Shown: positions 1 through 57,813, counted from the stretch's first letter. The stretch: 64,000 nucleotides of DNA from Macrostomum hystrix (GCA_950097015.1 CATNEN010000039.1:14880001-14944000), one strand, 5' to 3'. A program made the numbers and translations. Notes: a model not told the origin generated them from the letters alone.

Positions 1-29
1 TTGCTCCTGACGGACGTCGAGAACTGCTG

Positions 30-15787: not shown

Positions 15788-16806
15788 CTACAGCGCTGGC
15801 AGCAGCATCGCTAGCAGTATCGTGCAGCCCAACAGTACGGATACGAACAGCAAATTCTGGTGCCTAGCACCCGCAGCAGTCGGGGTTGCACCCGCGGCAG
15901 TCGTGGTTGCACCTGCAGCAGTCGGGGTTGCACCCGTAGCAGTCGGGATTGCACCCGCGGCAGTCGTGGTTGCACCCGCGGCAGTCGTGGTTGCACCCGC
16001 GGCAGTCGTGGTTGCACCCGCAGCAGTTGGGGTTGCACCCGCAACAGTCGTGGTTGCACCCGCAGCAGTCGGGGTTGCGCCTGCAGCAGTCGTGGTTTCA
16101 CCCGCGGCAGTCGTGGTTGCAGGAGGAGTGTACATCCGTAATGAGCTACAATCAGACTTTGCTGCGTTTGGAGTGCATTCGTAGCGTTCCATCTTCCGAT
16201 GTCTCGAGTAGTAGTTATACAGCATGTTGACATACATTTCACAGCCGATAATTGTAACATAGCCCCCGTCTTTGGGGGCTATGAAGTCCAATTTAAGGCA
16301 CTTTTCTGATGGAGGGCAAAAAATTTCAGATGGAAATTCTTGCGCCCAATCGACCTTCCATTTTTTGTAGTGAAGGCATGGTGCCAGATCACGTTCTAGA
16401 TCGTTGGTCAAGTTAAATACACTCGCTTTATTGCATTTTTCACCCGTGCAGTCTTTGCAATATTTTGTAGCAAGACAGGAGCCGCAACCATATTTCAGTC
16501 GCTAAAAAAGTTTCCGCATAGGGCAAAATTTATAGGGCGAACTGTTGCTTTATGATTTCGAATTGATATGCTAATTAAATTAGTTTAATTCATTCGGTCG
16601 CTCACCACTTCGCCTTCAGTTGGATCATATTCCACTTTACACTTGGTGACGCTGGCAGGAGTACAATCTGTATCAGTATCGTCATTCTTATATTCATAAA
16701 ATGGTACTTTATGATTCCTCGACCAGATACATTTAATACAATCAGCCAGCTGAATGCCTCCAAGTGCAAGAAACACGCCAACAATAACCAGCTTCATAGT
16801 CGTCAT
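15788..16806 (-). CDS. Surface-protein family copy 1: signal peptide, LU/three-finger-like domain, 6-Cys domain, 12 Thr/Ala/Gly heptads, GPI-type tail (304 aa); exons 16806-16606 and 16501-15788
   Basis: A phase-0 104-nt intron (GTGAGC...TTTTTTAG) joins MTTMKLVIVGVFLALGGIQLADC..EV in frame to RLKYGCGSC..CKDCTGEKCN. The same structure is conserved in four paralogues. Confidence 0.88.
15867..16118 (-). repeat. 21-bp coding minisatellite, 12 units (TTTAAGA/TPTAAGA stalk)
   Basis: Unit GCACCCGCRGCAGTCGKGGTT on the + strand. Confidence 0.95.
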
Positions 16807-17191
16807 GATTGCCAGCTTCGATTCCGAATAGCCCAGTTAGATTTGGTCGATTAGCTGGCAGGTGGCAGTTGAACTGCAGTCAATTCTTGATCCGATTTGC
16901 AACGGCTGAGTAGAATCGGCCAGAATGCTGAGTCGAGTGTTGTCAGTTGTTGGATTTGATTTTTCGTTTCGGGCCGCTGCCCCTTCAACATGCTGCAGAA
17001 AATGCAGGTGCGAGCCGGCTTGGTCTATGGCTGCGCTGGCTGACACAGGGGTGCCCGCCTTTTGTCTATGGCAATTTTCAGCTCTACTTTGCTTTTTTCA
17101 TGCACGACTTTTCTGAGATGAACTTTTGTGTTGTACTATTAGAAATCTTTCTAGCTTATTGGAGTTTCTCTCTAACTAAGAAGTATTGCAC

Positions 17192-19920
17192 CACAGAATA
17201 CACCAGAATGCCCAATCAAGCTCCCTGCGAAAAAAAATTGAGGCAAAAACTATTTGCTAGCTACGCTACTTCTAAGGTGAAGTGATTTGCAAGTAGTGCT
17301 GGCTTTTTTATCAACCCGAGTGTATTGAGATCGTCTTTGAGCTTGTCTTTCCTTCCATCTATCCTATCTATTTGATGCCCAGTGTATAATAACTCTGCTT
17401 AGTTGCCTGCGCTCCTTAGAATAAATCACAGAATACAATATTGCTGCATCGCACTTGACTGACGGCTACTTTATTCTGCCCAGTGATTTACGCCTCTGTT
17501 GTGCCATGCCAACAGTCTCACGTCGGCAGTGCGCATCATACGGCTGTAAATCCTATGCGTATAGAAATCGACCTGGAGTTCGTTTTCATAAGTTTCCAAT
17601 CAAGAGTCCTGAAAGGTACGTGACATCAGAATTATGATATCTTACGAGTAGCTATGTAGCAGACCTCTCAGCTCTCTCTATTTATTGAATTTACGATTGG
17701 TGAGCTGAGTATTTGGGGGGGATGGTAGCGTAATTTATGAGGGTGAGAGTAGGTATTTTCCACGCTGTTCGGGTTATAACCTAAGGTAGCGCTAATGCCC
17801 GAGCGGCAAGACACTAGCTACTAATGGGAGCGGAATTTCCTGCTGCTGGCACGAGGGCTAAGGTCACTGATCTGGGGCACACAGTCCGTGGGGCGTATCA
17901 GGATGGATTGAAGTTGCCTGGTGAATGTCCTTCGCACTCTCAAGCTTACTTTCCTCTATGGGGTCCGGGATTAATACAGTCTCAAGAGGGAAAAAGGCGG
18001 AGTTTTGGGACTTCAGGGGGGGTATTTAGGGAATTTTTAGGTGGACTTCAGATAGACTTCAGGTGGACTTTTTGGACGGGATTTAAGACGGTATATTGGG
18101 ATTTCAAAGGGATCATATAATAGGGTGGGTTTTGGTAAAGAAGGCCGACGAGAGATCTTTGGGAGAGGATTGGGAAGGCAAAGGTATCTTTAACTGTTTT
18201 CCTTTTATCAGGAAAATAACTCAGAAACTCGGTCTATTTAATAGCGAAACTGGAATAGAGGTTGGAAGTGGAATCGCTTATATTTCGTTGTATCGAACGT
18301 AGAGCTAAACGTTGAGAACGCATAGAACGTAAAGTAGGTCAAACAGGTAGCGGACGGTTAAGCGAGGTGAGCAAGGGTGCGCAAGGGTGAGGCAAGGTTG
18401 TGGCAAGGTCAAGATCGCATTTTCTCTCTATATATACACAAAGAAATTGGGGTGGGTGCATGTTTCTACTTTAAGAGTAATATAACGCACAAAGAGCTCG
18501 GCGTGATATAACGACATTTAGCTAGCGCGTGAGGAAAAATGGCGGGAATTTAAAATTATAAAGAAAACCTAATTTTACACTGCCTCAGTTATTTTAGTCG
18601 CTTCTGACAGGCATGCCATAATAACACGGATTGCTTTCTTGCTCAGTTTGAGATCACTAAAGGTTGTGTCTATGCAACTGTTTTCTAATGGAGACTGCAA
18701 ATCTGTGTTGTCCAGAAATCCTACTCAAGATCACGTAGAGAATGGCTTTGCATGCATCCGACGACGAGGCGGCTTTAATGACTGTCCGGAGTATAAAGAA
18801 GCTGCTGCGGCATTCCGCTCACTGGCCGTCAACCAGTTACTTGGCTGCCCATCGTTTGCTAACAACTGCAAACCCGACAGTTCAGTTCCCATGTTAACCA
18901 ATGTCATTCAGCTAATCACCGATGAAATCAAAGCGGATGGTGAGAAGTTCCCTATCAGTTCCGTTAATGAGAATGCGTGCCTGGCATTGACACAAGTTTA
19001 TGAAGATTCAGGAATGTTCGGAGAAAAGTGTGCCTATGTTGGAGGTTGGATGCTTCACTGCTTGTTGCGGTTGCGCACCGCTTGCCAGGACTGCAAAATG
19101 GGTCTCCTAAGTCGCGATGGTTGCAATGAGGGCATGCGTTTCCTAGAAAAAAGGAATATGCAAGACACTGGAAACGGCGGTCTGTACGTACCAAGTGAAG
19201 CGGTCTTGAAAGCAGTGCAGAAGATGGAGATGGTTTTCGACCAAATTTGCAATGTGTAGGACTCGATTAGAGTATGGAAGGGAATCAGTATCAGTGCCAG
19301 AGTCCAGCCTGCAGCACAAGCAGCTGCTGCAACTGAGCTACATCTACACAACAGTGAGCACACAAATGAATGGCTTTCATCTCTCACATTTGTACACACG
19401 CCTGCGGTTACATCACTGGTGCAAAGCTCAACAGGCATTACTTCGAGCTGCCAGGAAGCGCGGAGCTCCGAGTACGAGTACAGCTTCAGCAGAACAACGA
19501 AAGCTGGGGCGCCTGTTATCCGCTAAAGTATAGGATGCCTGTTGTTTGATGCTTAAACTGCTGCTCATGTTGCTGTTTATAAACTGTTCTAGTTTGCAAA
19601 TTTCATGTTCAATTTTTATGTACACCTATATCACGTACCCAATTGCTTTGAACTGCTGCTCATTCTGCTGTTTCTTAACTGTTCTAGTTAGTGTTGAATG
19701 CTCACAAATAATATCTGCATTTTTATGTCGCTACAGCTGCAAATATACAATCGGGCCTCTCTGTCCATAAAAAGCTCCAACCTGAATAGACATACAAAAG
19801 GGTGACTACTTCTCAAATTTTAGTACTACTTAACTCTTCTTCACCTCAGGAGTAGTGTCTATGGCTTTATATTTCGGCTTTAGATTTGGAAGCTGATTGA
19901 GCATTCTAGTGTATTCTGTG
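17192..19920 (+). mobile_element. P-element/THAP9-superfamily DNA transposon, internally deleted
   Basis: ~27-bp imperfect TIRs CACAGAATACACCAGAATGCCCAATCA / TGATTGAGCATTCTAGTGTATTCTGTG. 8-bp TSD TATTGCAC (17184-17191, 19921-19928); empty site at ~32625. THAP start MPTVSRRQCASYGC..FHKFP (17506) and transposase C-terminus QDHVENGFACIRRRGGFNDCP (ORF 18639-19259). Confidence 0.93.
17655..18579 (-). mobile_element. Solo-LTR-like insertion inside the P element
   Basis: TGTA...TACA ends, with a minus-strand TATA-like run (~18430) and AATAAA (~17681). No TSD found. Confidence 0.4.
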
Positions 19921-21373
19921 TATTGCACTTTACAAGCATCGAATGTATGTTTCACATGGGCCCATATTTGACAGACTTTTTAGACAGAACCAGGTTAACG
20001 AAAACTAGGCTAGCAATGAAGTCGGTGACTTATTACGGGATGAGTGAGCCGTGATGCATATCAAAGTATGCAGCAAGTTCTTCAAAGTTCAACCAATACA
20101 ATGTATCCTATATGTATCGAAGGTCTCTGTCTTCTCACTGGCTCATATATAATACTAACCAAACCGAAAGCATCGAACTGAAAATGAAAATGATGCAAAA
20201 CATAATGGCAATAAGTTCATTCAGTTGTCACTGTCAGACTTTATGTTTGTACCCAGAGCTGCATTACAGAAGAGCATAAGCGTATTCTACGGGCACCATG
20301 GCACGATCGCGGGGGCGAGTGGGTCAGCGGCTAACGTCGCTGCCTCGCACTCCAAAGGACGCTAGTTCGATTCACCCTTCAAGTCACGATTAATTTCGGG
20401 ACTTGTTGGGGGGGTTTGGACAGTAGCGACCGGCGGAGGTGCACCATATTTCGTGCAATCAAAGCTTGAAATAATAGCTTCGCTCCTACCTTCTGTGTGC
20501 CTGTTCTGCGTTGTATGAGTTTGTGCGTTGGCGCTGGGGCTAGGGATGCCAACCGGTTTTTAAACCGGTTTAAAAAACGGTTTTTAGCAGGAAAACCGGT
20601 TCTAAAAAACCCGGTTTTTTGTCCGGTTTTTTGGTGGTTTTTAATGGGTTTTTTATTTTAATTATGTCTCACAGAGTCACACTTTTTGCACTTTGGAGAA
20701 AAAATAACTGGTAACAAAATTTGCTTCGTGGTGGCAGCGCTACTAAGTCCTTTCAAATTGAACATTAAACTTAAAATTAAATCTAAGTTGAACTTGAAGT
20801 ATAAATCTAAATTGGGGCCTAATCTAAAACTATCTAAGTCTAAAAATAAAAACATCAAGGGTTCGCCGTTTCTAATCTAACCATCTCAGGGTACCGCCAG
20901 TTTGCCTTGGCCAAAATCATCAAATTAATCAATAATTGCTACCAGTGCATCATTAAGTTTAAAGTTATTATTCAGCAAAATTAAGAGTTCGCGAATTAGT
21001 TACGAACTAATCCGAACTAAATCTCAATTTATATTAAGTTCGCATTGGGTCTTTATTTTATTTCGCATTTAGTTCGCATTGGCTACGGAACGATTCCGAA
21101 GAAAGTCCACGGAAAATTTGAATTGGCGCGATATTCAATTTCCGCGAAACCTAACTGTAAGCAGCTTAGAGTTCGCGGCCCGCAGTGTACACTGCGGGGG
21201 TAGAGCGTACACGCCTGCGTGCGTGCTTGCGTGGCGTGATTGGGGGGTGGGTACGCCCACCCCAGTGTTTCTGGCCAAATATAATAGTGCTAGCGAGCCG
21301 GTATGGCTCTTCGCGTTTTGTGTGCATGCTACCTGACAAACCAGCGTCTTACACTGGTGGCAGCGGTCTCAGC

Positions 21374-22168
21374 ATGACTAAGCAAGAATCTTTACTGCCG
21401 CAAAAGTTCAGCGGCGCCGGCAGTGACTCAAATGTCAGAATGTGGCTAAGCATGTTTGAAGACTTCGCCGATGACAGCGACTGGGACGATAAGAAGAAGG
21501 CGAAGAAGTTGAAGCTGCTGCTGTCTGGAGAGGCACAGATCTTTGTGTGGGAACTTCCAGACGAAAAGAAAGTGAGCTACGAGCAGCTTAAGGTGGAGCT
21601 CATCGGGCACTTCGGCGACAGCCTGAGCAGCTACCGGGCGATGGAGGAGTTTGAGGAACGCAAACGTCGGCCAAATGAGTCTTTGAGAGAGCTGGCGTAC
21701 AACCTCAAGCTGCTGCACCTCCGGGCTCGGCCAGACGACTCTGTGGACGCCAGGGAGAAGGACGTGAAGTTCCGCTTGATGCGCCTCCTCCCAGCAGCTG
21801 TAAGAGATACGCTGCTCAAAGACCAGGACGCGGACTCCTGTCCGTTGACAGTCCTGATTGACCGGGCGGCCCGCATTGAGTTGGTGAGTCGCCAGTCATC
21901 AGCGACGTCAGCAGCCGTGACGGCGGAGGACAGTCGGATCAGCCGTCTGGAGCAGCAGGTTCAGCAGCTGGCTGTAGGTGTGCGAACGGGAGCCGCAGGC
22001 AAGGAAAGCCGTCAAAGGGCCATCAAGTGCTTCAGCTGCGGGGAAGTTGGCCACATCGCGAGGCAGTGCCCGAGAGCGGCAGGAGCCCGCTGCAGCAGGT
22101 GCTCAGGCAAGGGGCACACGGCGGCGGTCTGCCCGACACCAGCTGCACAGCCGCAGGGAAACTGCTGA
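21374..22168 (+). CDS. gag: Gypsy B gag with two CCHC knuckles
   Basis: ATG follows the PBS; PQKFSG..W, CFSCGEVGHIARQC, CSRCSGKGHTAAVC. Confidence 0.9.
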   Translation: MTKQESLLPQKFSGAGSDSNVRMWLSMFEDFADDSDWDDKKKAKKLKLLLSGEAQIFVWELPDEKKVSYEQLKVELIGHFGDSLSSYRAMEEFEERKRRPNESLRELAYNLKLLHLRARPDDSVDAREKDVKFRLMRLLPAAVRDTLLKDQDADSCPLTVLIDRAARIELVSRQSSATSAAVTAEDSRISRLEQQVQQLAVGVRTGAAGKESRQRAIKCFSCGEVGHIARQCPRAAGARCSRCSGKGHTAAVCPTPAAQPQGNC

Positions 22169-22198
22169 GGGTCGGCAGCCTGGGGCCAGCGCCGACCC
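22156..22198 (+). promoter_or_regulatory. -1 programmed ribosomal frameshift signal
   Basis: Slippery heptamer G GGA AAC (22156-22162), 6-nt spacer, stem GGGTCGGC/GCCGACCC (22169-22176/22191-22198). Pol is in the -1 frame relative to gag. Confidence 0.8.
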
Positions 22199-25100
22199 CC
22201 TCTCAAGGGGCCCACAGATCAGCGTCGTCCATCTTTGTGCCAGTGCGTTTCGGCAGGCACAGCTCGCCCGCCCTGCTGGACACGGGCGCGCAGATTTCGC
22301 TGATGGACAAGTCGCTGTACGATAAGCTTGACTGCCGGCTCGACTGCAGCGACATCAGCGTCATGCCGACCTCTGTCGACGGCTCGCGGCTGCGCTGCCT
22401 TGGCCTGACGACGGCGGAGGTTGCGATCGGCAGCGCGATTCGAGCGCGGCACAGTTTTACCGTGGTGGACGGCATCCAGCCTAGACTGATTCTCGGCATG
22501 GACTTCATCGGCCGGGTGTCGCAGACGGTGACCATCGACATGAAGGAAGGCGTCGTCCGGTTCGACAGCGATACGGTGGCTTTCAGCAGCGAGCAGCCGC
22601 GGGCCAGTTGCCGCCTGGTGCCAAGCGTTCTGGTGGCGCGCGTGGCGGTCAACACGGAGCTGCCGGCGCGGAGCGAGAAGGTCGTATGGCTCCGGGTGGA
22701 CTCCAGCCGAGAGCAGGGGGTATTCGAGCCCTGCGAGGACTTCGTAGCAGCCACGGCGGTGCTTTCGGCGCGCGTGCTGACTATCTCGGACGACGGCCGA
22801 ATCCCCGTCAAGATGTGCAACCTGGCCGAGGAGCCCGTGCTGCTGTACGCCAATAAAGCCGTCGGGACGTTCGAGGGTGCAATGGCCGGGGGGAGGAGCG
22901 ACTATCTCCATGAGGACCCCCTCGGCTGGAACATCAACCCGGAGCTGTCCGAGGCGGATGCGGTGAAGCTGCGCTAGCTGCTGGAGCAAAACGAGGACCT
23001 TTTCGCAAGGCACGAGTACGACCTGGGCACGACGGAGCTGCTGCAGCACAGGATAGATCTGGAGCCCGGAACGCGGCCGCACAGGCAGGTTCAGCGACGT
23101 CTGCCTCTGTCCGTGCGGGACCAGGTAGACAAGAAGATCGGCAAGATGCTGGACAGCGGCATCATCGAGCCGTCCATGTCTCCTTGGGCCAGCAACCTCC
23201 TGGTGGTGCGCAAGAAGAACGGCGACATCAGGCTCTGCACCGACTGGCGACAGCTGAACGCCTGCACAGTCAAGGACGCCTACCCGCTGCCGCATCTGCA
23301 GCAAGCCATGGACGCACTGGTCGGCTGTTCCTGGTTCTCCACCATCGATTGCCGGCAGGGTTATCACCAGGTGGAGGTGGCAGAGGAAGACCGGCCAAAG
23401 ACTGCCTTCTACTCCACCCGCGGCCTGATGCAGTTCCGCAAGATGGGCTTCGGGATGTGCAACGCCCCAGCGACATTTCAGCGCCTTATGGAGCTCGTCA
23501 TGTCCGGCTTATCCTGGGAGGTGGTGCTGACCTACATCGACGACATCATCGTCTTCAGCAGAATCTTCAACGAGCATCTGGCGCGGCTAGCACAGGTCCT
23601 TCAGCGGCTTCGAGGGGCCGGGCTCAAGCTGCACAGGGCGAAGAGTGTCTTCGGCCACCGCCAGGTGCTGTACCTGGGGCACCGGGTCAGCGAGCAGGGC
23701 ATCGCGCCAGACCCGAGCAAGGTGGACGCCATCCGCAGCATGTCCAGCCCGACGACAGCAGAGGAGGTGAAGCGGTTCCTCGGCATGCTAGGCTTCTATC
23801 GCCGCTTCATCCAGGACTTCAGCCAGACTGCGAGGGTGCTGCACGACGTCAGCCAGACAGCGAGAGACTTTAGATGGAGCAGCAGTTGCAAGCGGGCGTT
23901 CAACGAGCTGAAGGACAAGTTGACGACTGCCCCGGTGCTGCGGCTGCCCGACTTCAGCAAGCAGTTCGTTTTGAGCTGCGACAGCAGCCAGTTCGCAGTG
24001 GGCGCCGTGCTCAGCCAGTTGCACGGGGACGCTGAGCTGCCTGTGGCTTTCGCATCGCGCACGCTCAACAAAGCGGAGCGAAATTACTCGGCGACAGACC
24101 GGGAGCTGCTGGCGCTGGTGTGGAGCTTGAAGCACTTCAGAACGTACTTGCTCAGTGTTCCCAGCTTCACCGTCTACTCCGACCATCGGCCGCTTCAGGG
24201 ACTGCTGGCGACCAAGGACCCGGAAGGCAGGCTGGCGCGGTGGCTGTCTACGCTGCAGCAGTTCTCGTTCTCGCTGCTGTACCGGCCAGGCCGGGAGAAC
24301 GTTGTGCCAGACGCACTGAGCCGGGTGGCCGGCACGCGCCTGCAGCCCCGCTGGGAGGCCGCGCGCCTGCATGAGGAGCAGCGGCAGGACACGCTACTGA
24401 GCAAGGCGTTCCATGCGCTAGCGACAGGAATCGACAATCTGTCTGACACCTGGGCGGCGCAGGTTCGCGAGCTGCTGGATGGGGCATCAATAAGTACGGC
24501 GGGCGTCCTGCTGTTCCACGGCAAGCCGGTCATTCCCAGCCACCTGCGGCCGAACTTCCTGCAGGAGGCGCATTCCAGCGACCAGAGCGCCCACCTCGGT
24601 GTTGACAGGACGGTGGCGAGGCTGGCGGAGCGCTGCTGGTAGCCGGGCCTGCGGCGGGACGTGGAGAACTGGGTGGCGAGCTGCGCCGCCTGCCTAACCA
24701 AGAAGAGTCCGACCAGGCCGCAGCGGGCACCGCTGCAGACGACAGGCCAGCCGACAGCGCCTTGGCAGCAGGTGCAGATCGATATTAAAGGCCCGCTGCC
24801 GCGCACGACAGACGGCAACGCCTACATCCTCAGCATGTGCGACACCTTCTCCAAGTGGATGGAGACATCGGCGCTGGCGACGATCGACGCCGTGACGGTG
24901 GCGGATGCGCTGCTCAGAGCCGTTGTGCTGCGGCACGGTGCCCCACAAGTGCTGCACAGCGACCAAGAACGGCAGTTTGAGAGCGACGTCTTCGTCCGGC
25001 TCTGCGAGCAGCTGGGCATCGAGAAAACTCGCACATCGCCATTCCACCCAAGCGGCAATGGCGTCGTGGAGCGCGGCAACCGGACACTGGGTGACATGCT

Positions 25101-25848
25101 GGCGACGGTCGTGTCGGAGAGCCAGCAGGACTGGGACCGGAAGCTGCACTACGTTACCTGGGCCTATAACACCTCTGTGCACAGCACCACCGGCCTTAGC
25201 CCGTACCAGGTCCTGCATGGCTGGCCGCCGCGGCTGGCGCTCGACAGCTGGCTGGTGGACGGCGACAAGGCGGCGAGCGGCAGCCCGCACGACTTTCTGC
25301 AGCAGACGCAAGAGAACCTGGAGGGCGCCTTTGACGCGGTGCACGGCCGGCTGCGGGACGCCCAGGCGGCGCGCAACCAGCGAGTCAACCAGGGTGCCAG
25401 ATTCGTGCCGTTTGAAGAGGGCCAGCTGGTAATGCTGCGCAACTCCGTCGTCAAGCGCGGCCAGACGCGGTGCCTCAGCGACAAATGGAAGGGGCCGTAT
25501 CGGATCCTGCGGCGCCTCGGCGAGGTGAACTACCGCATCCAGGACCAGGCAGGCCGCCGGCGCAAGCTGGTGGTGCACCACGACCGGCTCCGACTCTTCA
25601 TTCAGCGGCGGCCGTCGCTGGAGCTGCCTGCTGCCGCCGATGCCGACACGAACGCCAACGGCCTCGCCGTGCGACCGCCCAGTCCAGCGGCTGACCCGGG
25701 TGGCGATGCGTTGGTCGGCTGGCCGGAACCGGACCAAAACGTGCAGCCCGATGATCCGCCGGCGGCCCCGCCCGAGCCGGCCGAGGCTCTCAGACGCTCG
25801 GCGAGAGAACGCCGGCCTCCTGACTTTTACATGGCTGGCTTTGCTTGA
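22162..25848 (+). pseudogene. pol: Gypsy B pol (PR-RT-RH-INT) in one frame, interrupted by two TAG codons (22975-22977, 24640-24642)
   Basis: ORFs at 22027, 23113 and 24661 share a frame; motifs LLDTGA, YIDD, CDSS, HLG, GPY. Confidence 0.9.
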
Positions 25849-27233
25849 CTGAACTGCTTCTAGGGGGAAAGTAGTGTAAGCAGCTTAGAGTTCGCGGCCC
25901 GCAGTGTACACTGCGGGGGGTAGAGCGTACACGCCTGCGTGCGTGCTTGCGTGGCGTGATTGGGGGGTGGGTACGCCCACCCCAGTGTTTCTGGCCAAAT
26001 ATAATAGTGCTAGCGAGCCGGTATGGCTCTTCGCGTTTTGTGTGCATGCTACCTGACAAACCAGCGTCTTACATAACTATAACAAATTTAAAATTAATAA
26101 TTCCAAGAAACTTTATTATTATTAATCGGCACGCACACCTTAAACAATTTCAGGATTGTATATAAGTTCTATCTTCTATGCCTATTTAGTGCTTTTTAAA
26201 AAATTGGCACACAAACCGGTTTTTAAAGACCGGTTTTCTTATAAAAGACGGTTTTCAAACCGGTTAACCGGTTCTCAATAAGGGCCGGTTTTTGGCATCT
26301 CTAGCTGGGGCGTTAGACCTTGCGGGGGGTGGCTGGAGGGCGGGTGTACACCGCCGCGCGCTCTCTGGAATTCCGTCAGCGCGATTGGATAAGTGTACAC
26401 TCATCACCCGGCCCCCCCTGAGGACTGATTTCTTATCAGCCTTCCGCCCCGGCTTGGTCTTGGTCTCTGTGCGTGTGGGGCGGGGGTGGGGGACACTGCT
26501 GCCTATTCTGGGTGCCTCCTGCCCTCCCGGGCTGGTCTGTGCTGCTGTGTGTGGTGCCTGCTCAGGGGAGGCGGCGCGATGGGCGCTAAAGCGCCTAGTT
26601 CGTCGGTCTGGGGGCGTGCCGCTCCGTCGCTTGTGCGACAAGTGTCCCGGGCCCCCCTGCAAATAGATAGAAGAGATAGATGACACGATCGCTTGAATGC
26701 ATCATTCATAATGTAAGACGCTAATTAAAATAGTTATTCTTTGATCAACAAACCGATGCTACATAATAACATCAATTCCGTTCAATAATTAAAGTATAAA
26801 CGTATTAAATGTATTGTCAATATTCTCATCATGCGCATATCTTTTCTATAACCAATGAATGTCACAGCAAGAGGTTTTGAAACATAACAATTCAAAGAAC
26901 GATACACTTTACAATGTAACAAATAATACAAAAGATGTGGAATGAATGCTTTAAGAAATTTGTAAGATTTCCAAAACGTGCGAAATAGAACGAAATGACT
27001 GTACGAGAATTAGTTATTGATCTCTTTCACCCAAAAACAAAAAAAGCCCAATCAAGTTCCATCAACAAAATATCCATCTTATCTATCAATCAACATCAAA
27101 ATGACACTATATCAAACTTCCATCTTAGAAGATTAAGTGGCAGCTTGCTGCCACCTTGGCCATCGCCGCCGCCACCTTGGCAGTCGATGGCACCGCCGCC
27201 GCCATCGCCTCCACCGCCGCCGCATACACTTAC

Positions 27234-27422
27234 CCCACCTATCCCTGCCACCCCACCGTTTTCCATCGCCACTGCCCTTCCGACCACCCCTGCCCTTCCC
27301 ACCGCCCCTGCCCTTCCCAACGCTGCCCTTCCCACCGCCCCTGCCCTTCCCAACGCTGCCCTTCTGACTGCCACTCCCATCCCTGCCCTTCCCGCCGCTT
27401 CCCTTCCCACCCCACCCTTGCT
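27234..27422 (-). other. Candidate orphan exon encoding Gly/Lys/Arg repeats (GKGRGGGKGSV...)
   Basis: CTGAACAG acceptor and G|GTAAGT donor bracket 189 nt (phase 1-1) that read open as EQGWGGKGSGGKGRDG...DRWG. It could instead be a G-rich low-complexity repeat. Confidence 0.3.
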
Positions 27423-29628: not shown

Positions 29629-30265
29629 TCTGGTAATATATGACAACACTGACCTTGTGTTAATTTAATGGCGAAATGAGAATTTCTCATCCAAAACAGT
29701 TAAACACATCAATAAACACATCTTTTTGACACCTCACACTTTCGAGAAACATTGCAAATTTGTAGAACCTCTTGTGCAGGACTATGCGGACACTTATATC
29801 GTGCTTTAATTATAGCATCGATTTTAGTATATGCGTTTGATAATCGCCTATTGCGCACCTCCTAAGGCAAAAGGGCAACACACCTTTCTGTCTGCCAAAT
29901 GTTGAAAATAGTCTGACCATCAAACAGCACGAAATCCAATCGGTTGGTTTGTGACCTAGACAAATTGCTCAGTCAACGAGTCTGGTAACCAAAAAGGGTA
30001 ACACTGTACGCTAACCGTGAGTGATCAGGTTTCCATCACCCTGTAATTAAACAGTTCTAAACTAAACATATATACCTTTTTCAACAGAAAATTTGTTGAC
30101 GAAAATCATTCAGGAGGCGAGTTATTGAGCTTAGAAATGTACCCTAGCTCATTCTCTGCCAAAACTTTGACAGCGGCTATAGACAATCTTTGCCGTAGAA
30201 AAATGCTACAGCATTCACTCCAAGCATGAGGTCAAAATCCTCCTAGTCGAGTCTAGCGTATAGAC

Positions 30266-30330
30266 CAGGGGTCGGCAAACTCCGGCCCGCGGGCCAGATG
30301 CGGCCCTCGAAGCTCCCAAATCCGGCCCGT
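30266..30330 (+). mobile_element. Truncated hAT (Charlie/SPIN-like) left end
   Basis: CAGGGGTCGGCAAAC.CCGGCCCGCGGGCC..ATGCGGCCC is a typical hAT terminus. No right end found. Confidence 0.65.
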
Positions 30331-30349
30331 TGCCCTTTCTGACATCTAC

Positions 30350-30610
30350 AGTGTCCTGTTTCATCTCTCTCGTGTCTAATCTCTTCCGTGTCTCATCTCT
30401 TCCATGTCTTATCTCTCCCGTGTCTCATCTCTCCCTTGTCTAATCTCTCCCCTGTCTTATCTCTCCCGTGTCTAATCTCTCCTGTGTCTCATCTCTCCCG
30501 TGTCTAATCTCTACCGTGTCTAATCTCTCCCGTCTTATCTCTCCCGTGTCTAGTCTCTCCTGTGTCTAATCTCTCCCGTGTCTAATCTCTTCCGTGTCTC
30601 ATCTCTTCCA
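30350..30610. repeat. Diverged 16-bp satellite (GTGTCTAATCTCTCCC)n
   Basis: Same family as 28387-29628. Confidence 0.9.
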
Positions 30611-31162
30611 TTCTGTTATATTTCCAGTTCTGATTTTATTTCAGATGTTTAACAACTGAAAAAATGTCTCACTGTGATAACGATTGAGCATTTATTTTTA
30701 AGCCGGTGTAACTTTTTTGCTTCAGTAATTATTTTGCACGAATTGTCATTTTTTAAATAAACATGACTACTTTCAAACGACAAGCCATGTTTAACTGATC
30801 ATTGTGCTGCTTGTGCGGTGTATTAAAAAACAATTCAACACAGACAGATATATTTAGGAACAAATTATTACAAAGCTGACACGCTTGAGATTTGCAACGT
30901 AAGTCGGTCCGTTTTTTCTATTGAGAGGAGGCTTTTAGCACCTTGATTTTTTCAGCACATTTTCAGACAGAACTTTGAAAACATTATTCCATACATTCAA
31001 CTCATCAATTCAATGCTTTCAATACATTCAACACATCAATTCAATGCTTTCAATACATTCAACACATCAATTCAATGCTTTCAATACATTCAACTCATCA
31101 ATTCAATGCTTTCAATACATTCAACACATCAAACACAACATTAAAAACTGTTAGCGCAAAGT

Positions 31163-32247
31163 CTACAGCGCTGGCAGCAGCATCGCTAGCAGTATCGTGC
31201 AGCCCAACAGTACGGATACGAACAGCAAATTCTGGTGCCTAGCACCCGCAGCAGTCGGGATTGCACCCGCGGCAGTCGTGGTTGCACCCGCGGCAGTCGT
31301 GGTTGCACCCGCGGCAGTCGTGGTTGCACCCGCAGCAGTCGTGGTTGCACCCGCGGCAGTCGTGGTTGCACCCGCAGCAGTCGGGGTTGCACCTGCGGCA
31401 GTCGTGGCTGCACCCGCGGCAGTCGTGGCTGCACCCGCGGCAGTCGGGATTGCACCCGCGGCAGTCGTGGTTGCACCCGCAGCAGTCGGGGTTGCACCCG
31501 CGGCAGTCGTGGCTGCACCCGCGGCAGTCGTGGCTGCACCCGCAGCAGTCGTGGTTGCAGACGGAATGTACATTCGTAATATGATACAATCAGTTGCATT
31601 TGCATTTGGTCTACATTCGTAGCGTTTCATGGTTTCATGGTCATAACGATGGTTGATCCAGTTTTCACAGCCGATAATGTCTGCGTTTGCTTGAATTTCC
31701 TCAGATTGAGGCTTTTTAGAAACAATTTTAAGACACTTTTCAGATGGACTGCAAAAAGCTTCAGTAAGTTGTTTATATTCTTTATACCATATTTTGTACT
31801 TAAGGCATGGTACCAGATCACGTTCTAGATCATTGATAACTACACTCGCTTTATTGCAGTTATCACCCGTGCAGTCTTTGCAATATTTTGTACGGGGACA
31901 GGCGCCGCAACCATATGTCAATCGCTAAAAAAAGTTTCCAGGCAAAAGGCAAAATATATAGGTCAAACTGTTGCTTTATGATTTCGAATTGATTTGCTAA
32001 TTAAATTAGTTTAATTCATTCCGTCACTCACCACTTCATTTTCATGTCTGCTTCTAGGATCATATTCTACGTAACACTTGTTCATGTTTGGATCACAATG
32101 TACCTGAGCATCATTCATTGAATCTTGCTTATATAGAAAGAATGATGATGTCATACCAAGCGACCAGATACATTTAATACAATCAGCCAGCTGAATGCCT
32201 CCAAGTGCAAGAAACACGCAAACAATAACCAGCTTCATAGTCGTCAT
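31163..32247 (-). CDS. Surface-protein family copy 2 (325 aa, 15 stalk heptads, GPI-type tail); exons 32247-32032 and 31924-31163
   Basis: 107-nt GTGAGT..TTTAG intron in phase 0; all 14 ectodomain cysteines conserved. Confidence 0.88.
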
Positions 32248-34255
32248 GATTGCCAGCTTCGATTCCGAATAGCCCAGTTAGATTTGGTCGATTAGCTGGC
32301 AGGTGGCAGTTGAACTGCAGTCAATTCTTGATCCGATTTGCAACGGCTGAGTAGAATCGGCCAGAATGCTGAGTCGAGTGTTGTCAGTTGTTGGATTTGA
32401 TTCTTCGTTTCGGGCCGCTGCCCCTTCAATATGCTGCAGAAAGTACAGGTGCGAGCCGGCTCGGTCTATGGCAGCGCTGGCTGACACAGGGGTGCCCGCC
32501 TTTTGTCTATGGCAAATTTCAGCTCTACTTTGCTTTTTTCATGCACGACTTTTCTGAGATGAACTTTTGTGTTGTACTATTAGAAATCTCTCTAGCTTAT
32601 TGGAGTTTCTCTCTAACAAAGAAGTATTGCACTTTACAAGCATCGAATGAATATTTCCCATGGGCCCATATTTGACAGGCTTTTTAGACAGAGCCAGGTT
32701 AACGAAAACTATTCCTCCGATTCCTCCGCACCTCAGATCCCGCATCCTATGCCACAGATCCCATATCCCAGAAAATACATCCAATATGGGATACGCTGAT
32801 CCTACATCCGAGATCCTATATCTCATTCGACAGATCTCAGATCCCAAATCGCAGATCCTGAATCGCACATTCCGAATCGTGATCGAAAAAGCACTTTCAA
32901 GTTCCAATGAACCCGAATAATAATAGAGAGCGGAGGGACAGGATTTTGAAGTGTCTGGGTGGGGTTTTACAATGAGTTATGCTCACGGGATTGTCTATAC
33001 ACTGTTCTTACCACCACTTTGCAAAACGATGCTGCGGAAGCAACGACTGACAAGACTGAAGAGGCACAAATAAAAAGATTAGACATTGAGGCCTTGGCAA
33101 CATTTTCTATGGCGATATTTTTTTAATGTTTTGTGAGAGTCTTGCAGCCAAGTCTTTGCTTTTCTACTGTTGTCAGTAGTCTGAATTATATCTCTCAGAC
33201 CTATGAAGTACTGCAGAAGTGCGGCCACGTGAACTACCGGATCCGTATTGGCACGGCAACCAATACGTTCCACATCAATCTGCTCAAGTAATATACAGTG
33301 CGCGAGAGTCGATTTTGATGCACCTGTCAGCGACAACGACAGGTGCTCTTGCGCTGTCTGACCGTCTGAGCCCGGACGAGAGGGACCGTCTCCAGCAGCT
33401 GGTGCAGGACTTCGCGAACGTCTTCAATGAGATCCTGGGTAGGACCGACTTGGTGGAGCACCAAATCTGGACGACATCTGACCGTATAGTGCGCATCCGG
33501 CCGCGGCGGGAGCCGCAGGCGTATCGACAGGTGCTCAAAGAGGAGATCCAACGCATGCTGGACCTCGGAGTGATCGAACCGTGGACTGTGACTTCTGCTC
33601 CCCGGTCTGTCTAGTGGCCAAGAAGGACGGCTCGGTCCGATTCAAGGCGCTAAATGAGCTGGTGGCATTCGATTCCTACCCAATGAAGAACCTCGAGGAT
33701 CTGCTGGAGCAAGTCACCAGGGCCAAGTTCATATCCAAGCTAGACTGCTGCAAGGGCTACTGGCAGATTCCTCTGTCCGAGAGCTCGAAGCGGCTGACAG
33801 CACTCGCGGCCGGTGGCAAGCTTTACCAATTCATCGTAATGCCCATGGGCTTAAACTGCGGCAGCGCAACGTACCAGAGGCTCATGGACAAGATGGTCCA
33901 AGGGCTGGGCAAAGCAGACTCATACGTCGACGACAGCGCCGTGTTCAGCGAGACCTTCGAGCAGCACGTTCACGACCTGAGGCAGGTGTTAGGCCGCCTC
34001 CAGGCTGCCGGTCTGACGGTGCAGCCTCGCAAATGCTACCTGGGCGGCAACTCGGTGGACTACCTCGGCTTCAAGCTCGGCGGAGGCCAGATCAGCACGA
34101 GCGAGGATCGAGTGCGGACTGTCACTGCACTGGCTCGACCCAAGACCAAAGACAAGGTGGCAGCCCTGACGGACCTCACGAAGAAGTCGGCGCCCGAGGA
34201 CCTAAGAGCGGCCTGGGGAGAACAGCAGACTCGAGGCTTCGACTCGAGCCAACAG

Positions 34256-34534
34256 ACTGACTCAAGATTTAGTGACTGACTCAAGATTTAGTGACTGACT
34301 CAAGATTTAGTGACTAACTCAAGATTTAGTGACTGACTCAAGATTTAGTGGCTGACTCAAGATTTAGTGACTGACTCAAGATTTAGTGACTGACTCAAGA
34401 TTTAGTGACTGACTCAAGATTTAGTGACTGACTCAAGATTTAGTGACTGACTCAAGATTTAGTGACTGACTCAAGATTTAGTGACTGACTCAAGATTTAG
34501 TGACTGACTCAAGATTTAGTGACTGACTCAAGAT
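34256..34534. repeat. 19-bp VNTR ACTGACTCAAGATTTAGTG, ~14.7 copies (1.7 copies at the paralogous site 14946-14977)
   Basis: Directly visible. Confidence 0.97.
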
Positions 34535-35265
34535 GGCCTTCTTTTCCCGTCGTGCCCGGTTCCGGCTGCGGCGGGCTTCTTCGACCGTTTGGAGCGGCCG
34601 GTCATCGTTTCCTGAGCCCCGCTAGTAGGTGAACCGGAGGGGCCGGAATGGGCGCTGTCAATGGCGGAGGGGCCGGGTTTGTAGCGGGAGCTTCAGTCCC
34701 GGTTTCAAGGATGGCATTAGCAGAAGCCATAGCTGAAAGCAGGTGCAGGGTTTACTCATAAGCGAGGTAAAAAGCCTTTGGCACCTCTCCCTCAGAGCCC
34801 AGGCCAGACGTACCTAATGATCAGGAGGGGTCCTGGATGGGTCGTCAAGCGCCGTTGCTTATTCTGTCCGGCTTTCTGTCGGACATTCTGTTATATTTCC
34901 AGTTCTGATTTTATTTCAGATGTTTAACAACTGAAAAAATATCTCATTGTGATAACAATTTAGCATTTATTTTTAAGCAGGTGTAACTTTTTTGCTTCAG
35001 TAATTATTTTGCACGAATTGTCATTTTTTAAATAAACATGACTACTTTCAAACGACAAGCCATGTTTAACTGATCATTGTGCTGCTTGTGCGGTGTATTA
35101 AAAAACAATTCAACACAGACAGATATATTTAGGAACAAATTATTACAAAGCTGACATGCTTGAGATTTGCAACGTAAGTCGGTCCGTTTTTTCTATTGAG
35201 AGGAGGCTTTTAGCACCTTGATTCTTTCAGCACATTTTCAGACAGAACTTTGAAAACATTATTCC

Positions 35266-35531
35266 ATACATTCAACTCATCAATTCAATGCTTTCAATAC
35301 ATTCAACTCATCAATTCAATGCTTTCAATACATTCAACACATCAATTCAATGCTTTCAATACATTCAACTCATCAATTCAATGCTTTCAATACATTCAAC
35401 TCATCAATTCAATGCTTTCAATACATTCAACACATCAATTCAATGCTTTCAATACATTCAACACATCAATTCAATGCTTTCAATACATTCAACACATCAA
35501 TTCAATGCTTTCAATACATTCAACACATCAA
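35266..35531. repeat. 31-bp VNTR just downstream of the copy 3 stop codon (~8.5 units; ~4.5 at 30991-31131; ~1.5 at 15709-15756)
   Basis: Unit ATACATTCAAC[AT]CATCAATTCAATGCTTTCA. Confidence 0.95.
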
Positions 35532-35561
35532 ACACAACATTAAAAACTGTTAGCGCAAAGT

Positions 35562-36943
35562 CTACAGCGCTGGCAGCAGCATCGCTAGCAGTATCGTGCA
35601 GCCCAACAGTACGGATACGAACAGCGAATTCTGGTGCCTAGCACCCGCGGCAGTCGGGGTTGCACCCGCGGCAGTCGGGATTGCACCCGCGGCAGTCGTG
35701 GTTGCACCCGCAGCAGTCGGGATTGCGCCCGCAGCAGTCGGGATTGCACCCGCAGCAGTCGGGATTGCACCCGCAGCAGTCGGGATTGCACCCGCGGCAG
35801 TCGTGGTTGCACCCGCAGCAGTCGGGATTGCACCCGCGGCAGTCGTGGTTGCACCCGCGGCAGTCGGGGTTGCACCCGCAGCAGTCGGTATTGCACCCGC
35901 GGCAGTCGTGGTTGCACCCGCGGCAGTCGTGGTTGCACCCGCAGCAGTCGGGATTGCACCCGCAGCAGTCGTGGTTGCACCCGCGGCAGTCGTGGATGCA
36001 CCCGCAGCAGTCGGGATTGCACCCGCGGCAGTCGTGGTTGCACCCGCGGCAGTCGTGGATGCACCCGCAGCAGTCGGGATTGCACCCGCAGCAGTCGGGA
36101 TTGCACCCGCGGCAGTCGTGGATGCACCCGCAGCAGTCGGGGTTGCACCCACGGCAGTCGTGGTTGCACCCGCAGCAGTCGGGGTTGCGCCTGCAGCAGT
36201 CGGGGTTTCACCCGCGGCAGTCGTGGTTGCAGGAGGAGTGTACATCCGTAATGAGCTACAATCAGACTTTGCTGCGTTTGGAGTGCATTCGTAGCGTTCC
36301 ATCTTCCGAGGATTCTTATCTCTCGAGTAGTAGTTATACATCAGGTTGATATACATTTCACAGCCGATAATTGTAACATAGCCCCTGTCTTTGGGGGCTA
36401 TGAAGTCCAATTTAAGGCACTTTTCTGATGGAGGGCAAAATATTTCAGATGGAAATTCTGGCGCCCAATTGACCTTCCATTTTTTGTAGTGAAGGCATGG
36501 TACCTGATCGCGTTCTAGATCGTTGGTCAAGTTAAATACACTCGCTTTATTGCATTTGTCACCCGTGCAGTCTTTGCAATATTTTGTAGCAGGACAGGCG
36601 CCACAACCATATTTCAGTCGCTAAAAAAGTTTCCGCATAGGGCAAAATTTATAGGGCGAACTGTTGCTTTATGATTTTGAATTGATATGCTAATTAAATT
36701 AGTTTAATTCATTCGGTCGCTCACCACTTCGGTACGAGAAAAAACAGTTGAAGCTTCAGGATGATATTCCACTTTACACTTGGTGTCTTTGGCAGGAGTA
36801 CAATCTGTATCAGTATCGTCATTCTTATATTCATAAAATGGTACTTTATGATTCCTCGACCAGATACATTTAATACAATCAGCCAGCTGAATGCCTCCAA
36901 GTGCAAGAAACACGCCAACAATAACCAGCTTCATAGTCGTCAT
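35562..36943 (-). CDS. Surface-protein family copy 3 (425 aa, 28 stalk heptads, GPI-type tail); exons 36943-36725 and 36620-35562
   Basis: 104-nt intron differs by 1 nt from copy 1; ectodomain is closest to copy 1. Confidence 0.88.
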
Positions 36944-37188
36944 GATTGCCAGCTTCGATTCCGAATAACCCAGTTAGATTTGGTCGATTAGCTGGCAGGT
37001 GGCAGTTGAACTGCAGTCAATTCTTGATCCGATTTGCAACGGCTGAGTAGAATCGGCCAGAATGCTCAGTCGAGTGTTGTCAGTTGTTGGATTTGATTCT
37101 TCGTTTCGGGCCGCTGCCCCTTCAATATGCTGCAGAAAATGCAGGTGCGAGCCGGCTCGGTCTATGGCAGCGCTGGCTGATACAGGGG

Positions 37189-38096
37189 ATCGTCCTGGAT
37201 CGTCTCTCCCGGTTTCCGCCGCATGTCGCTCCAGAACCGGAAGCGCTCCCGCACAATGAAGCGCTTGGCGTCATACTGTTCATCCATGAATTTCCCAATC
37301 TGGTCCATTGTGAGCTTGTTGATCTCCTTCGGCGGCGTCTGCTGTCCTGCTAAGTTCGAGAGAAGCTTGTAGGTGGACGGAGACTGGTTCGTCAGGAACA
37401 CCTGGGCCTTCTTGTCATCGGGTATGGAGTTCGCACCCGTGAAAGTGTTGAATCTGGCCAAGTAGTCGGGCCAAAGCTCGGACGTGAAGTCGAATGGCGA
37501 AAAACTCGGAGTTGACGTCGTAAAGTGTGTCGCCAAAACCGCAGCCTGGGACTGGCTGCCTGTAGGCTGTAGAGACCGGATGAGGTCTAGCAATAACTGC
37601 CGGTCAGCTTCACGCTGGCGACGATCTTCCTCCATCTGCTGCTGTAGAAGTGTGATTACTTCTTCGCTATCGGGCATGATGGTTGCAGCTTGATCCTTCG
37701 TTCAGTAGTGACTGTCGTTGCAAATCAGACGTCCTCGAAGTTGATCAAGATCCTGCTTGCGACGCCTGAAAATCCCTGTTGTATCTTTAATAACTGACGC
37801 AACGGAGATTCCGATTTGTAGAGTAATAAGGAAAACACGCCAATAGGCGGCACTCGGCAGGCAGACGAATAGGAGTGTGTATTTGATATATTATAGCAGT
37901 CGGCGTACGAAAAATATACATGAGTGCAGGGGTCGGGGGCTTTTATTGATAGGCCCAAAGGCATGGGGAAGAGCTTTCTAGGAAGTTACTAAAAATAGAC
38001 TACGCGGGAAGTTTCTGAAACAAAAGTGTATGGACTTACGCCTTACGACAAAGAATAGAAATTTCTGGAAAGTTCCTGGGAATTACAACAACAACA
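37189..38096 (-). mobile_element. gag: 3'-truncated Gypsy element C: LTR (~37777-38096), PBS-like site and gag N-terminus (37677-37189)
   Basis: TGTTG...CAACA ends; GGCGTCGCAAGCAGG resembles the PBS of element A; gag FSPFDFTSELWPDYLARF..FIVRERFRFW. Confidence 0.82.
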
Positions 38097-38475
38097 GTCT
38101 CAACACTTACCCTCCTTTTCTTTCTTATCTTTGTCCCTTCCTCTTCGTTTCGCTGCTGCTTTCGCGAAGTTTGTGCCTCTCTCGTGCTTCTTTGTTCGTG
38201 CTTTGGGGGCACAAAATGACTACTTTCAAACATCAAGCCAGGTTTAACTGATCATTGTGCAGCTTGCATGGAGTGTTAAAAAAATTCGGAGCAGATATAT
38301 ATATTTATTTGGTCACAAAATATGATAATCCAGGCATGCTTGGGATTTGCTACGGAAATCGGTCAGTGTTTGCTATTGAGAGGAGGCTTTTAGAGTCTTG
38401 ATATTTTCAGCACATTTTCATACAACTTTCAATACAAGTTGTCAGAACTTTCAATACATTCAATACGCTCGTACA

Positions 38476-39278
38476 TCAAAAAATGAAAGAATAAAGCTTA
38501 AATCGCCAAATAAGCAGCGCAATCAGAATCGCTATCAGCATCGCGCAGCCCAGCAGTACGGCTACGAACAGCCAATTCACCCCAGAAGTCGTGGTTGTAG
38601 GCGGAGTGTACATTCCTAATTTGATACAACCAGTTTTTTCTGCGTTTGGTCTGCATTCGTAGCGTTTAAATGCTTTTGCAGCGCGAAAATTACTGTTGAT
38701 CCAATTTTCACAGCCGATATATTCAAATCGCACATGCCGAAGAATCTGAACAGCTTGAAAGCACTTTTCTGATGGAGGGCAAAAGGATTCAGCAGCTCGT
38801 GGTCTAGACGATGTAAGCATCTGGTTGTTAAGGCATGGTACCAGATCACGTTCAAGATCATTGATTAAGTTTAATACACTCGCTCCATTGCAGTTACTAC
38901 CCTCGCAGTCTTTGCAATATTTTGTACTGTGACAGGCGCCGCAACCATATTTCAGTCTCTGAAAAAGTTTCCGCATAGGGCAAAATTTATAGGGCAAACT
39001 GTTGCTTTATGATTTCGAGTTGATATGCTAATTAAATTAGTTTAATTCATTCGGTCGCTCACCACTTCTTCTTCTTCTTCAATTCTAGGATCATATTCCA
39101 CTTTACACTTGGTGATGCCTGGAAGACAATTTGTTTCAACAGAATCCATTGAACTATCCTTATACATAGAAAATTTTGATAACCTATTGTGCGACCAGAT
39201 ACATGTAATACAATCAGCCAGCTGAATGCCTCCAATTGCAAGAAACACGCAAACAATAACCAGCTTCATAGTCGTCAT
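38476..39278 (-). CDS. Surface-protein family copy 4 (232 aa, no stalk, TM helix and short tail); exons 39278-39063 and 38958-38476
   Basis: 104-nt GTGAGC..TTTCAG intron and the same Cys scaffold. Ends PPTTTTSGVNWLFVAVLLGCAMLIAILIALLIWRFKLYSFIF. Confidence 0.86.
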
Positions 39279-45880: not shown

Positions 45881-45944
45881 TACCACTTTTTTAATGCGTT
45901 TTTTAGTTTTTAAATATGTTGAACGGTTAATAATTGTTATTTGC

Positions 45945-47886: not shown

Positions 47887-47901
47887 ATCTGAATCAGCTG
47901 A

Positions 47902-57680: not shown

Positions 57681-57813
57681 GGCCTGGCACTGCTCTAGGT
57701 GTCCTCTTATGCCTAAGGTCTCACCGCGCTGAGGGGCTGAAAGGTCCGGGGAGTCTATCCGGCCATTAGCGGTTTTTATTTTTACTTTTCTTTCTTTTTC
57801 TTTCCAGCGACCT

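Follow-up and report, generated by a model that had tools for sequence, protein, structure and literature searches.

A cluster of two-exon cysteine-rich genes in Macrostomum hystrix with near-identical introns and hypervariable loops: probable selection on loops and exchange between copies

Results

Four neighboring copies of a two-exon gene

We analyzed a window of 64,000 nucleotides (nt) from Macrostomum hystrix (GCA_950097015.1 CATNEN010000039.1:14880001-14944000), within which all positions below are counted, and compared it with itself to find related units. This revealed four neighboring related units, all on the minus strand (copies 1-4). Each has two exons, an intact open reading frame (ORF) and a phase-0 GT-AG intron. 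We consider it probable that these genes encode a cell-surface family whose loops have been driven apart by selection, and whose conserved blocks have been homogenized and 3' modules swapped by exchange between copies.

The ORFs start at ATG positions 16806 (copy 1), 32247 (copy 2), 36943 (copy 3) and 39278 (copy 4) and encode 304, 325, 425 and 232 amino acids (aa), respectively. The intron measures 104 nt in copies 1, 3 and 4 and 107 nt in copy 2. The product starts with a hydrophobic leader, followed by two blocks that together hold 15 invariant cysteines (nine in domain 1 and six in domain 2), a stalk composed of a Thr/Ala/Pro repeat and a hydrophobic end. The stalk is encoded by a 21-nt minisatellite, with 12 units in copy 1, 15 in copy 2, 28 in copy 3 and none in copy 4. 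The features of the four copies, including inter-cysteine loops L1-L5 of copy 1, untranslated regions (UTRs), predicted glycosylphosphatidylinositol (GPI) signals and a long interspersed element (LINE) fragment, are as follows.

Copy 1
16807..17191, minus strand: shared 5' flank, promoter and 5' UTR, from the self-comparison and from contigs (depth falling from 132,875 to 505 near 17000)
16606..16806, minus strand: exon 1, with the signal peptide (about 22 aa) and the first half of domain 1; L1 at 16645-16719, L2 at 16612-16620
16502..16605, minus strand: intron, 104 nt, phase 0, GT-AG, from the gene model and contigs
15788..16501, minus strand: exon 2, with the remainder of domain 1, domain 2, the stalk and a GPI-like hydrophobic end
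16322-16372, 16250-16294 and 16187-16234, minus strand: exon 2 loops L3, L4 and L5
15867-16121, minus strand: stalk repeats, 12 units
13728..15787, minus strand: 3' flank, containing a LINE reverse transcriptase fragment

Copy 2
32248..32711, minus strand: shared 5' flank, carrying the empty site of a transposon found upstream of copy 1
32032..32247, minus strand: exon 1
31925..32031, minus strand: intron, 107 nt
31163..31924, minus strand: exon 2, with a divergent ectodomain, 15 stalk repeats (31242-31559) and the C-terminal end of copy 1
30610..31162, minus strand: 3' flank, 98% identical to those of copies 1 and 3, stopping at a 16-nt minisatellite

Copy 3
36944..37188, minus strand: shared 5' flank, truncated at about -245 by retrotransposon-like sequence
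36725..36943, minus strand: exon 1
36621..36724, minus strand: intron, 104 nt
35562..36620, minus strand: exon 2, with 28 stalk repeats (35641-36231) and a GPI-like end
33101..35561, minus strand: 3' flank, duplicated with copy 1

Copy 4
39279..39667, minus strand: shared 5' flank
39063..39278, minus strand: exon 1
38959..39062, minus strand: intron, 104 nt, skipped exactly in runs X1, X6 and X11
38476..38958, minus strand: exon 2, with a divergent ectodomain, lacking stalk repeats, and a transmembrane-like end followed by 10 residues
38213..38475, minus strand: 3' flank, 23% diverged from copies 1-3

Copy 1 shares about 430 nt of its 3' flank with copy 2 and, at 98% identity, about 2 kb of it with copy 3. 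Within the 3' UTR, copies 1-3 carry a 31-nt repeat (15705-15757, 30987-31132 and 35262-35531) that ranges from fewer than 2 to about 9 units and is likely a second site of unequal exchange.

Introns and 5' ends are alike and loops are hypervariable

A first-pass annotation of this sequence had described nearly identical introns and flanks around hypervariable ectodomain loops. Its intron distances were reproduced in our alignment: copies 1 and 3 differ by 1 nt, copies 1 and 4 by 3 nt, and copies 3 and 4 by 4 nt. Copy 2 differs from the others by 8-9 substitutions and 3 gap columns and is indeed more diverged in its 3' part, with 5 of the 8 substitutions relative to copy 1, and both indels, falling in the last 40 nt. 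The 5' flank shared by all four copies spans 240 nt, in which any two copies differ at 4-7 positions (at 0-1 within the final 120 nt), and a further 145 nt common to copies 1, 2 and 4 holds 3-4 differences. The signal peptide shows 0-2 differences per 66 nt, none of them synonymous. The near-identity claimed for the flanks thus applies to the 5' side. On the 3' side, copies 1-3 are 98-99% identical, but copy 4 differs at 51 of 226 nt (23%).

Against the 1-9% by which intron and front end differ, 41-83% of the nucleotides in loops L1-L5 differ between lineages 1/3, 2 and 4, and the three loop-1 sequences quoted in the annotation are all present. Copies 1 and 3, reported to differ by more than ten replacements and two in-frame indels, are separated by 18 replacement codons, 4 synonymous codons and two frame-preserving indels (6 and 3 codons). 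The two copies agree throughout loop 1 (0 of 54 nt differ) but have entirely different loop-2 sequences. The claim that all indels preserve the frame also stands, since none of the at least 11 length changes between invariant anchors breaks it (chance about 1/3^11, calculated by hand). This indicates that the genes are maintained; it does not show diversification.

The intron and 5' end are too young for the ectodomains

The fitted synonymous distance between the lineages is 0.20-0.30, and other yardsticks gave 0.28 (framework islands), 0.33 (loop synonymous sites) and 0.27 (copy-4 3' flank). Intron distances are 0.03 (copies 1 and 4) and 0.08 (copies 1 and 2), and those of the 5' flank 0.024-0.027. 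For a synonymous age of 0.2-0.3, the intron and 5' end are therefore 3-10 times too alike. In all three pairs tested, framework synonymous divergence exceeded that of the 5' flank (p <=0.002), and in two of the three it exceeded that of the intron (p 0.019, 0.045 and 0.12). Synonymous changes, of which 6.3-8.8 would be expected, are absent from the first 29 codons. Either conversion or constraint has kept the intron and front end younger than the ectodomains, and the data do not fully separate these two causes.

At the 3' end, recombination is needed, because the genealogy there differs from that of the ectodomains. Against copy 1, copy 2 has no difference in 81 C-terminal nt and 6 in 339 nt of the 3' flank, and for copy 4 the counts are 20 in 78 and 51 in 226 (Fisher p 1.6e-7), whereas the intron runs the opposite way, with 8 of 104 nt for copy 2 and 3 of 104 for copy 4. 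In the ectodomain, copy 2 is as far from copy 1 as copy 4 is. Branch lengths that were unlinked among 5', intron and 3' regions were preferred to proportional ones (twice the log-likelihood difference, 2dL, 60.1; p 4e-10). In copy 2 an old ectodomain is joined to a 3' end that matches those of copies 1 and 3 at 98-100% identity, and the switch lies at the coding 21-nt minisatellite, whose unit variants are common to copies 1-3. Taken together, the excess of ectodomain synonymous divergence over intron and 5' flank and the discordant 3' genealogy indicate that the intron is not a valid neutral clock.

Purifying selection could hold the 5' end and intron alike without conversion, and this weighs against our interpretation. 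On such an account the loops are positively selected while promoter, UTR, signal peptide and intron are constrained. Salamander plethodontid modulating factor (PMF) offers a precedent, with about 98% UTR against about 30% protein identity (PMC6487043). A single tree (1+3 against 2+4) fits 45 of the 49 informative ectodomain sites, as this account would have it, and a low-depth contig listed for another organism has only 3 differences in about 170 promoter nt. The account leaves unexplained why copy 2 resembles copies 1 and 3 in its C-terminus and 3' flank when copy 4 is 23-26% diverged, and it requires constraint on signal-peptide synonymous sites as well as on an entire 104-nt intron that has no Rfam match. 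We regard it as unlikely. For copy 1, Rfam gave one weak match, located on the GC-rich stalk repeat, and none in the intron or flanks; on that basis the possibility that the intron conceals an RNA gene was rejected.

Loops were likely driven apart by positive selection

To ask where replacements are in excess, codon site models were fitted in a custom implementation (not PAML) to 186 codons of the four sequences. M2a was favored over M1a (2dL 40.8), with omega, the ratio of replacement to synonymous rates (dN/dS), at 5.2 for 41% of the codons. The site-model check proposed with the first-pass annotation gave the same outcome, with loop omega above 1 and 2dL for M7/M8 as for M1a/M2a; M8a/M8 agreed. 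Across codon models, omega was about 4-5.6 at about 40% of sites. The M1a/M2a result was stable in 4 of 4 other alignment settings (2dL 39.8-40.9); 2dL was 13.9 (p 0.001) when double and triple substitutions were allowed, 12.8 when gap columns were removed as well, and 7.5 (p 0.024) for the multi-hit model over the 117 codons at least 4 from any gap. Among the 25 sites with posterior above 0.95, 24 lie in loops. Since one tree fits nearly all informative ectodomain sites, false positives from recombination are limited.

Copies 1 and 3 permit an unsaturated comparison. Their replacement rate (5.4%, or 4.1% without loop 2) exceeds their non-coding divergence of 1.9% (40 of 2120 sites, the duplicated LINE fragment included), with p 1e-4, or 0.009 without loop 2. 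At unchanged codons, synonymous differences occur at 7 of 26 loop sites and 13 of 56 sites of the short domain-2 framework islands (p 0.78). This similarity indicates that the loops are not simply hypermutated.

A stricter null holds the loops to be neutral and merely older or faster, with synonymous and replacement rates raised together. It corresponds to a history of conversion only, in which very old lineages drift neutrally in the loops and everything else is homogenized. Freeing omega beat this null in 6 of 6 mixture tests (p 0.001-0.034), and the observed 2dL of 8.84 was reached in 1 of 77 simulations. A history of this kind also requires a loop age of about 1 substitution per site, whereas the three yardsticks given above (framework, loops and copy-4 flank) all lie at about 0.27-0.33, and it does not predict the replacement excess between copies 1 and 3. 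In its favor, a two-class model with loop synonymous and replacement rates both raised 6.8-fold falls just 2.5 log-likelihood units below M2a, and the 3'-end genealogy demonstrates exchange independently.

Several further points count against selection on the loops. Multi-hit terms weaken the test against the neutral-loop null to p 0.017-0.034. With a fixed partition into loops and framework p is 0.028, and 0.056, no longer significant, once multi-hit terms are added; moreover, the loops were in part defined from the same alignment as was tested. Without multi-hit terms the synonymous rate of the fast class is also raised, 2.5-fold (p 0.03); it is not raised once multi-hit changes are modeled (p 0.6-0.85). 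Plain counting over the whole mature ectodomain gives dN/dS of 0.84-1.37, and for copies 1 and 3 the replacement rate does not clearly exceed the synonymous rate, which is based on 4 codons. Only four sequences, representing three deep lineages, enter the models. Owing to saturation of the loops, Nei-Gojobori counting did not serve as the main test; its value near 1 averages conserved framework with saturated loops. In the comparison of dN, dS and intron distance suggested in the annotation, loop dS (0.33) is like that of the framework and whole-ectodomain dN/dS lies near 1. On balance, a history of conversion only appears improbable to us, a little more so than constraint without conversion. 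The loops were likely driven apart by positive selection, with moderate rather than overwhelming support.

Alternatively, loops could be replaced as blocks by a targeted mechanism (short donor tracts or loop-specific mutation), like the one put forward for snake toxins as ASSET, with selection secondary. Sharp switches at framework borders, the combination of a common loop 1 and an unrelated loop 2 in copies 1 and 3, a fitted double-substitution rate of 0.09-0.2 and clustered changes in contigs would all suit such replacement. However, 30 of 34 informative loop sites agree with the ectodomain tree and no pair of lineages shares a loop out of step with it, the loop synonymous rate is not raised under multi-hit terms, and self-comparison of the window contained no donor segments. 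We therefore rate block replacement as very unlikely.

The annotation had offered diversifying selection or framework conversion as alternatives. Selection stands, at moderate strength; the choice between the two does not, as exchange is needed too. Selection on loops and exchange between copies are likely both at work.

The predicted protein may be three-finger-like

The N-terminus is hydrophobic (19-residue mean 2.2-2.4), and hydropathy predicts the signal peptide and anchor that characterize proteins of the Ly6/uPAR (LU, three-finger) superfamily. By the same measure, the C-terminal hydrophobic stretch is followed by 1-2 residues in copies 1-3, resembling a GPI signal, and by 10 in copy 4, resembling a transmembrane segment. 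Domain 1 contains nine invariant cysteines with a final C-x2-C-x4-CN motif, enough for four bonds and one spare; its second cysteine is codon 26 in all copies. Because the number is odd, one cysteine may be free or may form a dimer or inter-domain bond. LU domains have 4-5 disulfides each, according to an excerpt of PMC7053344. The six cysteines of domain 2 allow three bonds at most and so fall short of that definition.

Homology searches were largely empty. A word search with copy-4 exon 2 against 5.8 billion proteins, restricted to lengths 88-280, found no homolog, and an exon-2 profile run against 1.84 billion representatives found none beyond one match at E 9.7e-4. That match, a 2801-aa hypothetical protein, was judged a chance cysteine match and rejected. 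PDB sequences yielded 0 matches, and Pfam, with its LU-clan profiles (UPAR_LY6, Toxin_TOLIP, Activin_recp, DUF753 and kin), yielded none for the four exon-1 and four exon-2 products at E up to 10, with the intron-split domain 1 scanned in halves.

Look-alikes in the ESM Atlas were LU-clan clusters with scores of 0.75-0.85, under the 0.9 threshold for a lead. The exon-2 model has a predicted local distance difference test (pLDDT) score of 59.8, with domain 2 at about 70-80 and forming four strands and a helix; the exon-1 model (pLDDT 46) is uninformative. For the exon-2 model, Foldseek gave no match at E 0.001, and LU or three-finger chains made up 15 of 50 VIA-align rows at Z 2.9-4.2, none reaching 5. 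A point against a three-finger fold is that the top three VIA-align rows were photosystem I subunits (Z 4.5-4.7), ahead of the best LU chain at Z 4.2. Cysteine spacing and look-alikes weakly suggest a three-finger-like fold as the best reading, LU-like rather than an established member of the LU family.

Venom three-finger toxins are single secreted domains without an anchor, encoded by three exons; here we find two cysteine domains, a stalk, an anchor signal and two exons. Diversified immune or allorecognition receptors of invertebrates form large polymorphic families with positively selected extracellular loops, and here there are four genes, six further loop-2 types in contigs and omega above 1.

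The family appears to be transcribed and larger than four copies

Parts of copy 1 are present in 13 public runs from four studies, and contigs of 6 of the 13 were examined. The runs are labeled 'DNA?' or unknown and were handled as RNA-like because depth in the intron was zero and the splice joints were exact. The depth of contigs is no measure of expression and was not used to rank it. In X1 and X5, depth is zero within the copy-1 intron and falls off near 17000, and on these grounds both behave as RNA. The 104-nt intron of copy 4 is skipped exactly in X1, X6 and X11, three of the four runs examined for that copy. A 493-nt contig from X6 matches spliced copy 4 with 0 differences, a 113-nt contig of X1 is identical to loop 5 of copy 1, and a further piece from that run differs from copy 2 at a single position. 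The junction rows listed for X1, X5 and X6 contain at least six additional loop-2 types, 6 of 6 in frame by hand arithmetic. Thus, the family appears to be transcribed and larger than four copies.

In one X5 contig (window 16119-16745), 625 nt are skipped and leader codon 21 continues in frame into the stalk repeat. The contig represents a family member or isoform without cysteine domains. Some contigs join copy-2-like with copy-4-like 3' parts, such short joints showing local adjacency only. Spliced copy 4 is also present in X11, a run listed under another organism, where 8 of 487 nt differ (window 38386-39176). Variants at 38386, 38436, 38814, 39175 and 39176 are common to X11 and X1, and X6 has the window sequence. 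The three ectodomain variants among these alter copy-4 codons 35 and 121, both flagged as selected. The common variants could reflect cross-species allele sharing or a mixed sample.

An assembly artefact, in which polishing or collapse equalized the long blocks or copies 1 and 3 are alleles laid in tandem, might be expected in a repeat-rich region where these two copies share about 2 kb at 98%, yet it is extremely unlikely given private differences per copy in the 5' flank (and for most in the intron), the exact contig matches to copy 4 and to copy-1 loop 5, flanking insertions that differ among copies and, for alleles, a contrast that would become balancing selection rather than vanish.

Transposons and satellites fill the rest of the window

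The remainder of the window consists of transposons and satellites, and Pfam named no host gene among 24 products scanned. One element bounds the shared flank of copy 1:

17192..19920, no strand assigned: DNA transposon, 386 nt upstream of copy 1, with inverted ends matching at 19 of 20 positions, an 8-nt target duplication and a weak TNP-like RNase H match

Its empty site is found in copy 2 and in a contig of run X13. Ty3/gypsy-type elements at 6692-11339 and 21156-26073 have terminal repeats that are 97% and 99.5% identical, and a relative lies at about 59480-61850. A piggyBac-type open transposase frame of 589 codons (49926-51695) has 98% identity with one protein and no more than 55% with others. 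The same order of minisatellites (21-, 23/24-, 23- and 18-nt) occurs at 45592-48636 and again at 53171-55960, which suggests a duplicated satellite-bearing element. A long retrotransposon-like frame occupies the window start (1-3900). For the LINE reverse transcriptase frame at 57733-59544, the highest-identity match among the 23 rows listed is a Macrostomum lignano protein (62% over 150 aa).

Discussion

Proposed mechanism and role

How selection and exchange might interact can be sketched as follows. Conversion tracts would form in the long stretches of identity, namely from promoter through UTR to signal peptide, and in the intron with its neighboring framework, and those tracts that overwrite loops would be purged by selection. 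Conversion within identical blocks combined with such purging would leave peaks of divergence at the loops. Unequal crossover in the stalk minisatellite would resize the stalk (12, 15, 28 or 0 units), and the same crossover could have placed the old copy-2 ectodomain onto a young anchor and 3' UTR.

As to function, we tentatively propose a variable coat on the cell surface that would bind foreign molecules from microbes or parasites or act as a decoy for them, a role that we hold to be slightly short of even odds. Gamete or mate recognition would be the main alternative and ranks second. The annotation had likened the pattern to snake three-finger toxins and conotoxins. That comparison is apt for the evolutionary pattern, whereas a venom role itself is unlikely because of the stalk and membrane anchor signal. 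More speculatively, and with considerable doubt on our part, the locus may belong to a large, combinatorially diversified repertoire of membrane-tethered recognition proteins with two finger domains, possibly of a free-living flatworm, with selected antibody-like loops, a coding minisatellite that lets ectodomains be combined with different stalk and anchor modules, a promoter and leader kept uniform by conversion, and loop alleles common across species. If true, this would constitute an innate immune or self/mate recognition system on a three-finger-like scaffold.

Exons that evolve faster than introns are usually read as pure positive selection, with the intron taken as the clock. Here, three independent neutral yardsticks in one cluster find that clock 3-10 times too young, so that selection and exchange can be told apart within a single family that is small and tractable. 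Nothing among 1.84 billion protein representatives matches this family, which appears to be large and to be transcribed and whose anatomy is that of a variable recognition protein of the cell surface. Identifying its tissue and ligand could uncover a hitherto unknown invertebrate system of immunity, reproduction or self-recognition.

Comparison with known systems

The published systems below are cited from excerpts of the respective papers. In the part of the Macrostomum and flatworm literature that was searched, we found no description of a Ly6, three-finger, uPAR, hypervariable or immune family of this kind. The excerpt of a survey from 2026 on LU proteins of invertebrates gives a total of 61 for 5 flatworm genomes, with no mention of Macrostomum or of expansions (PMC13719153). 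The exon/intron pattern is already known from snake toxins, salamander PMF and opsins; the family and its modular shuffling appear to be undescribed.

In domain layout, the closest parallels are C4.4A (LYPD3) and Haldisin (LYPD5), which combine two LU domains with a mucin-type Ser/Thr/Pro region and a GPI anchor (PMC7053344). The same layout of two domains, stalk and GPI signal is predicted for copies 1-3, but no sequence similarity was found, and domain 1 here has 9 cysteines and domain 2 has 6. C4.4A is not known as a hypervariable tandem family.

In snake three-finger toxin genes, introns are highly similar, exon segments sharply different and the scaffold conserved, a pattern called ASSET (PMC2474615). 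Those toxins are secreted, single-domain proteins from three exons, unlike the two-exon genes here with two domains, a stalk, an anchor and swaps of 3' modules. PMF is likewise a three-finger multigene family with positively selected coding sequence and UTRs about 98% identical (PMC6487043). It is secreted, and its UTR identity is ascribed to purifying selection, whereas here two types of 3' end swap between ectodomains.

The sea urchin Sp185/333 (SpTransformer) genes are small, have two exons and lie closely clustered. Their 5' and 3' flanks are similar and bordered by simple repeats, segmental duplications are present and conversion has been proposed (PMC3091723). Their diversity is a mosaic of elements (PMC9623053). 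The cluster architecture is alike; the protein is unrelated, and here the variation resides in loops on a cysteine scaffold.

Finally, the introns of human red and green opsins are kept alike by conversion and an exon is kept divergent by selection (PMC3924837). The same model of divergence peaks fits the M. hystrix cluster. In opsins it concerns two fixed functional sites in an old pair, whereas the family here comprises ten or more types and has five loops that are saturated and show omega above 1.

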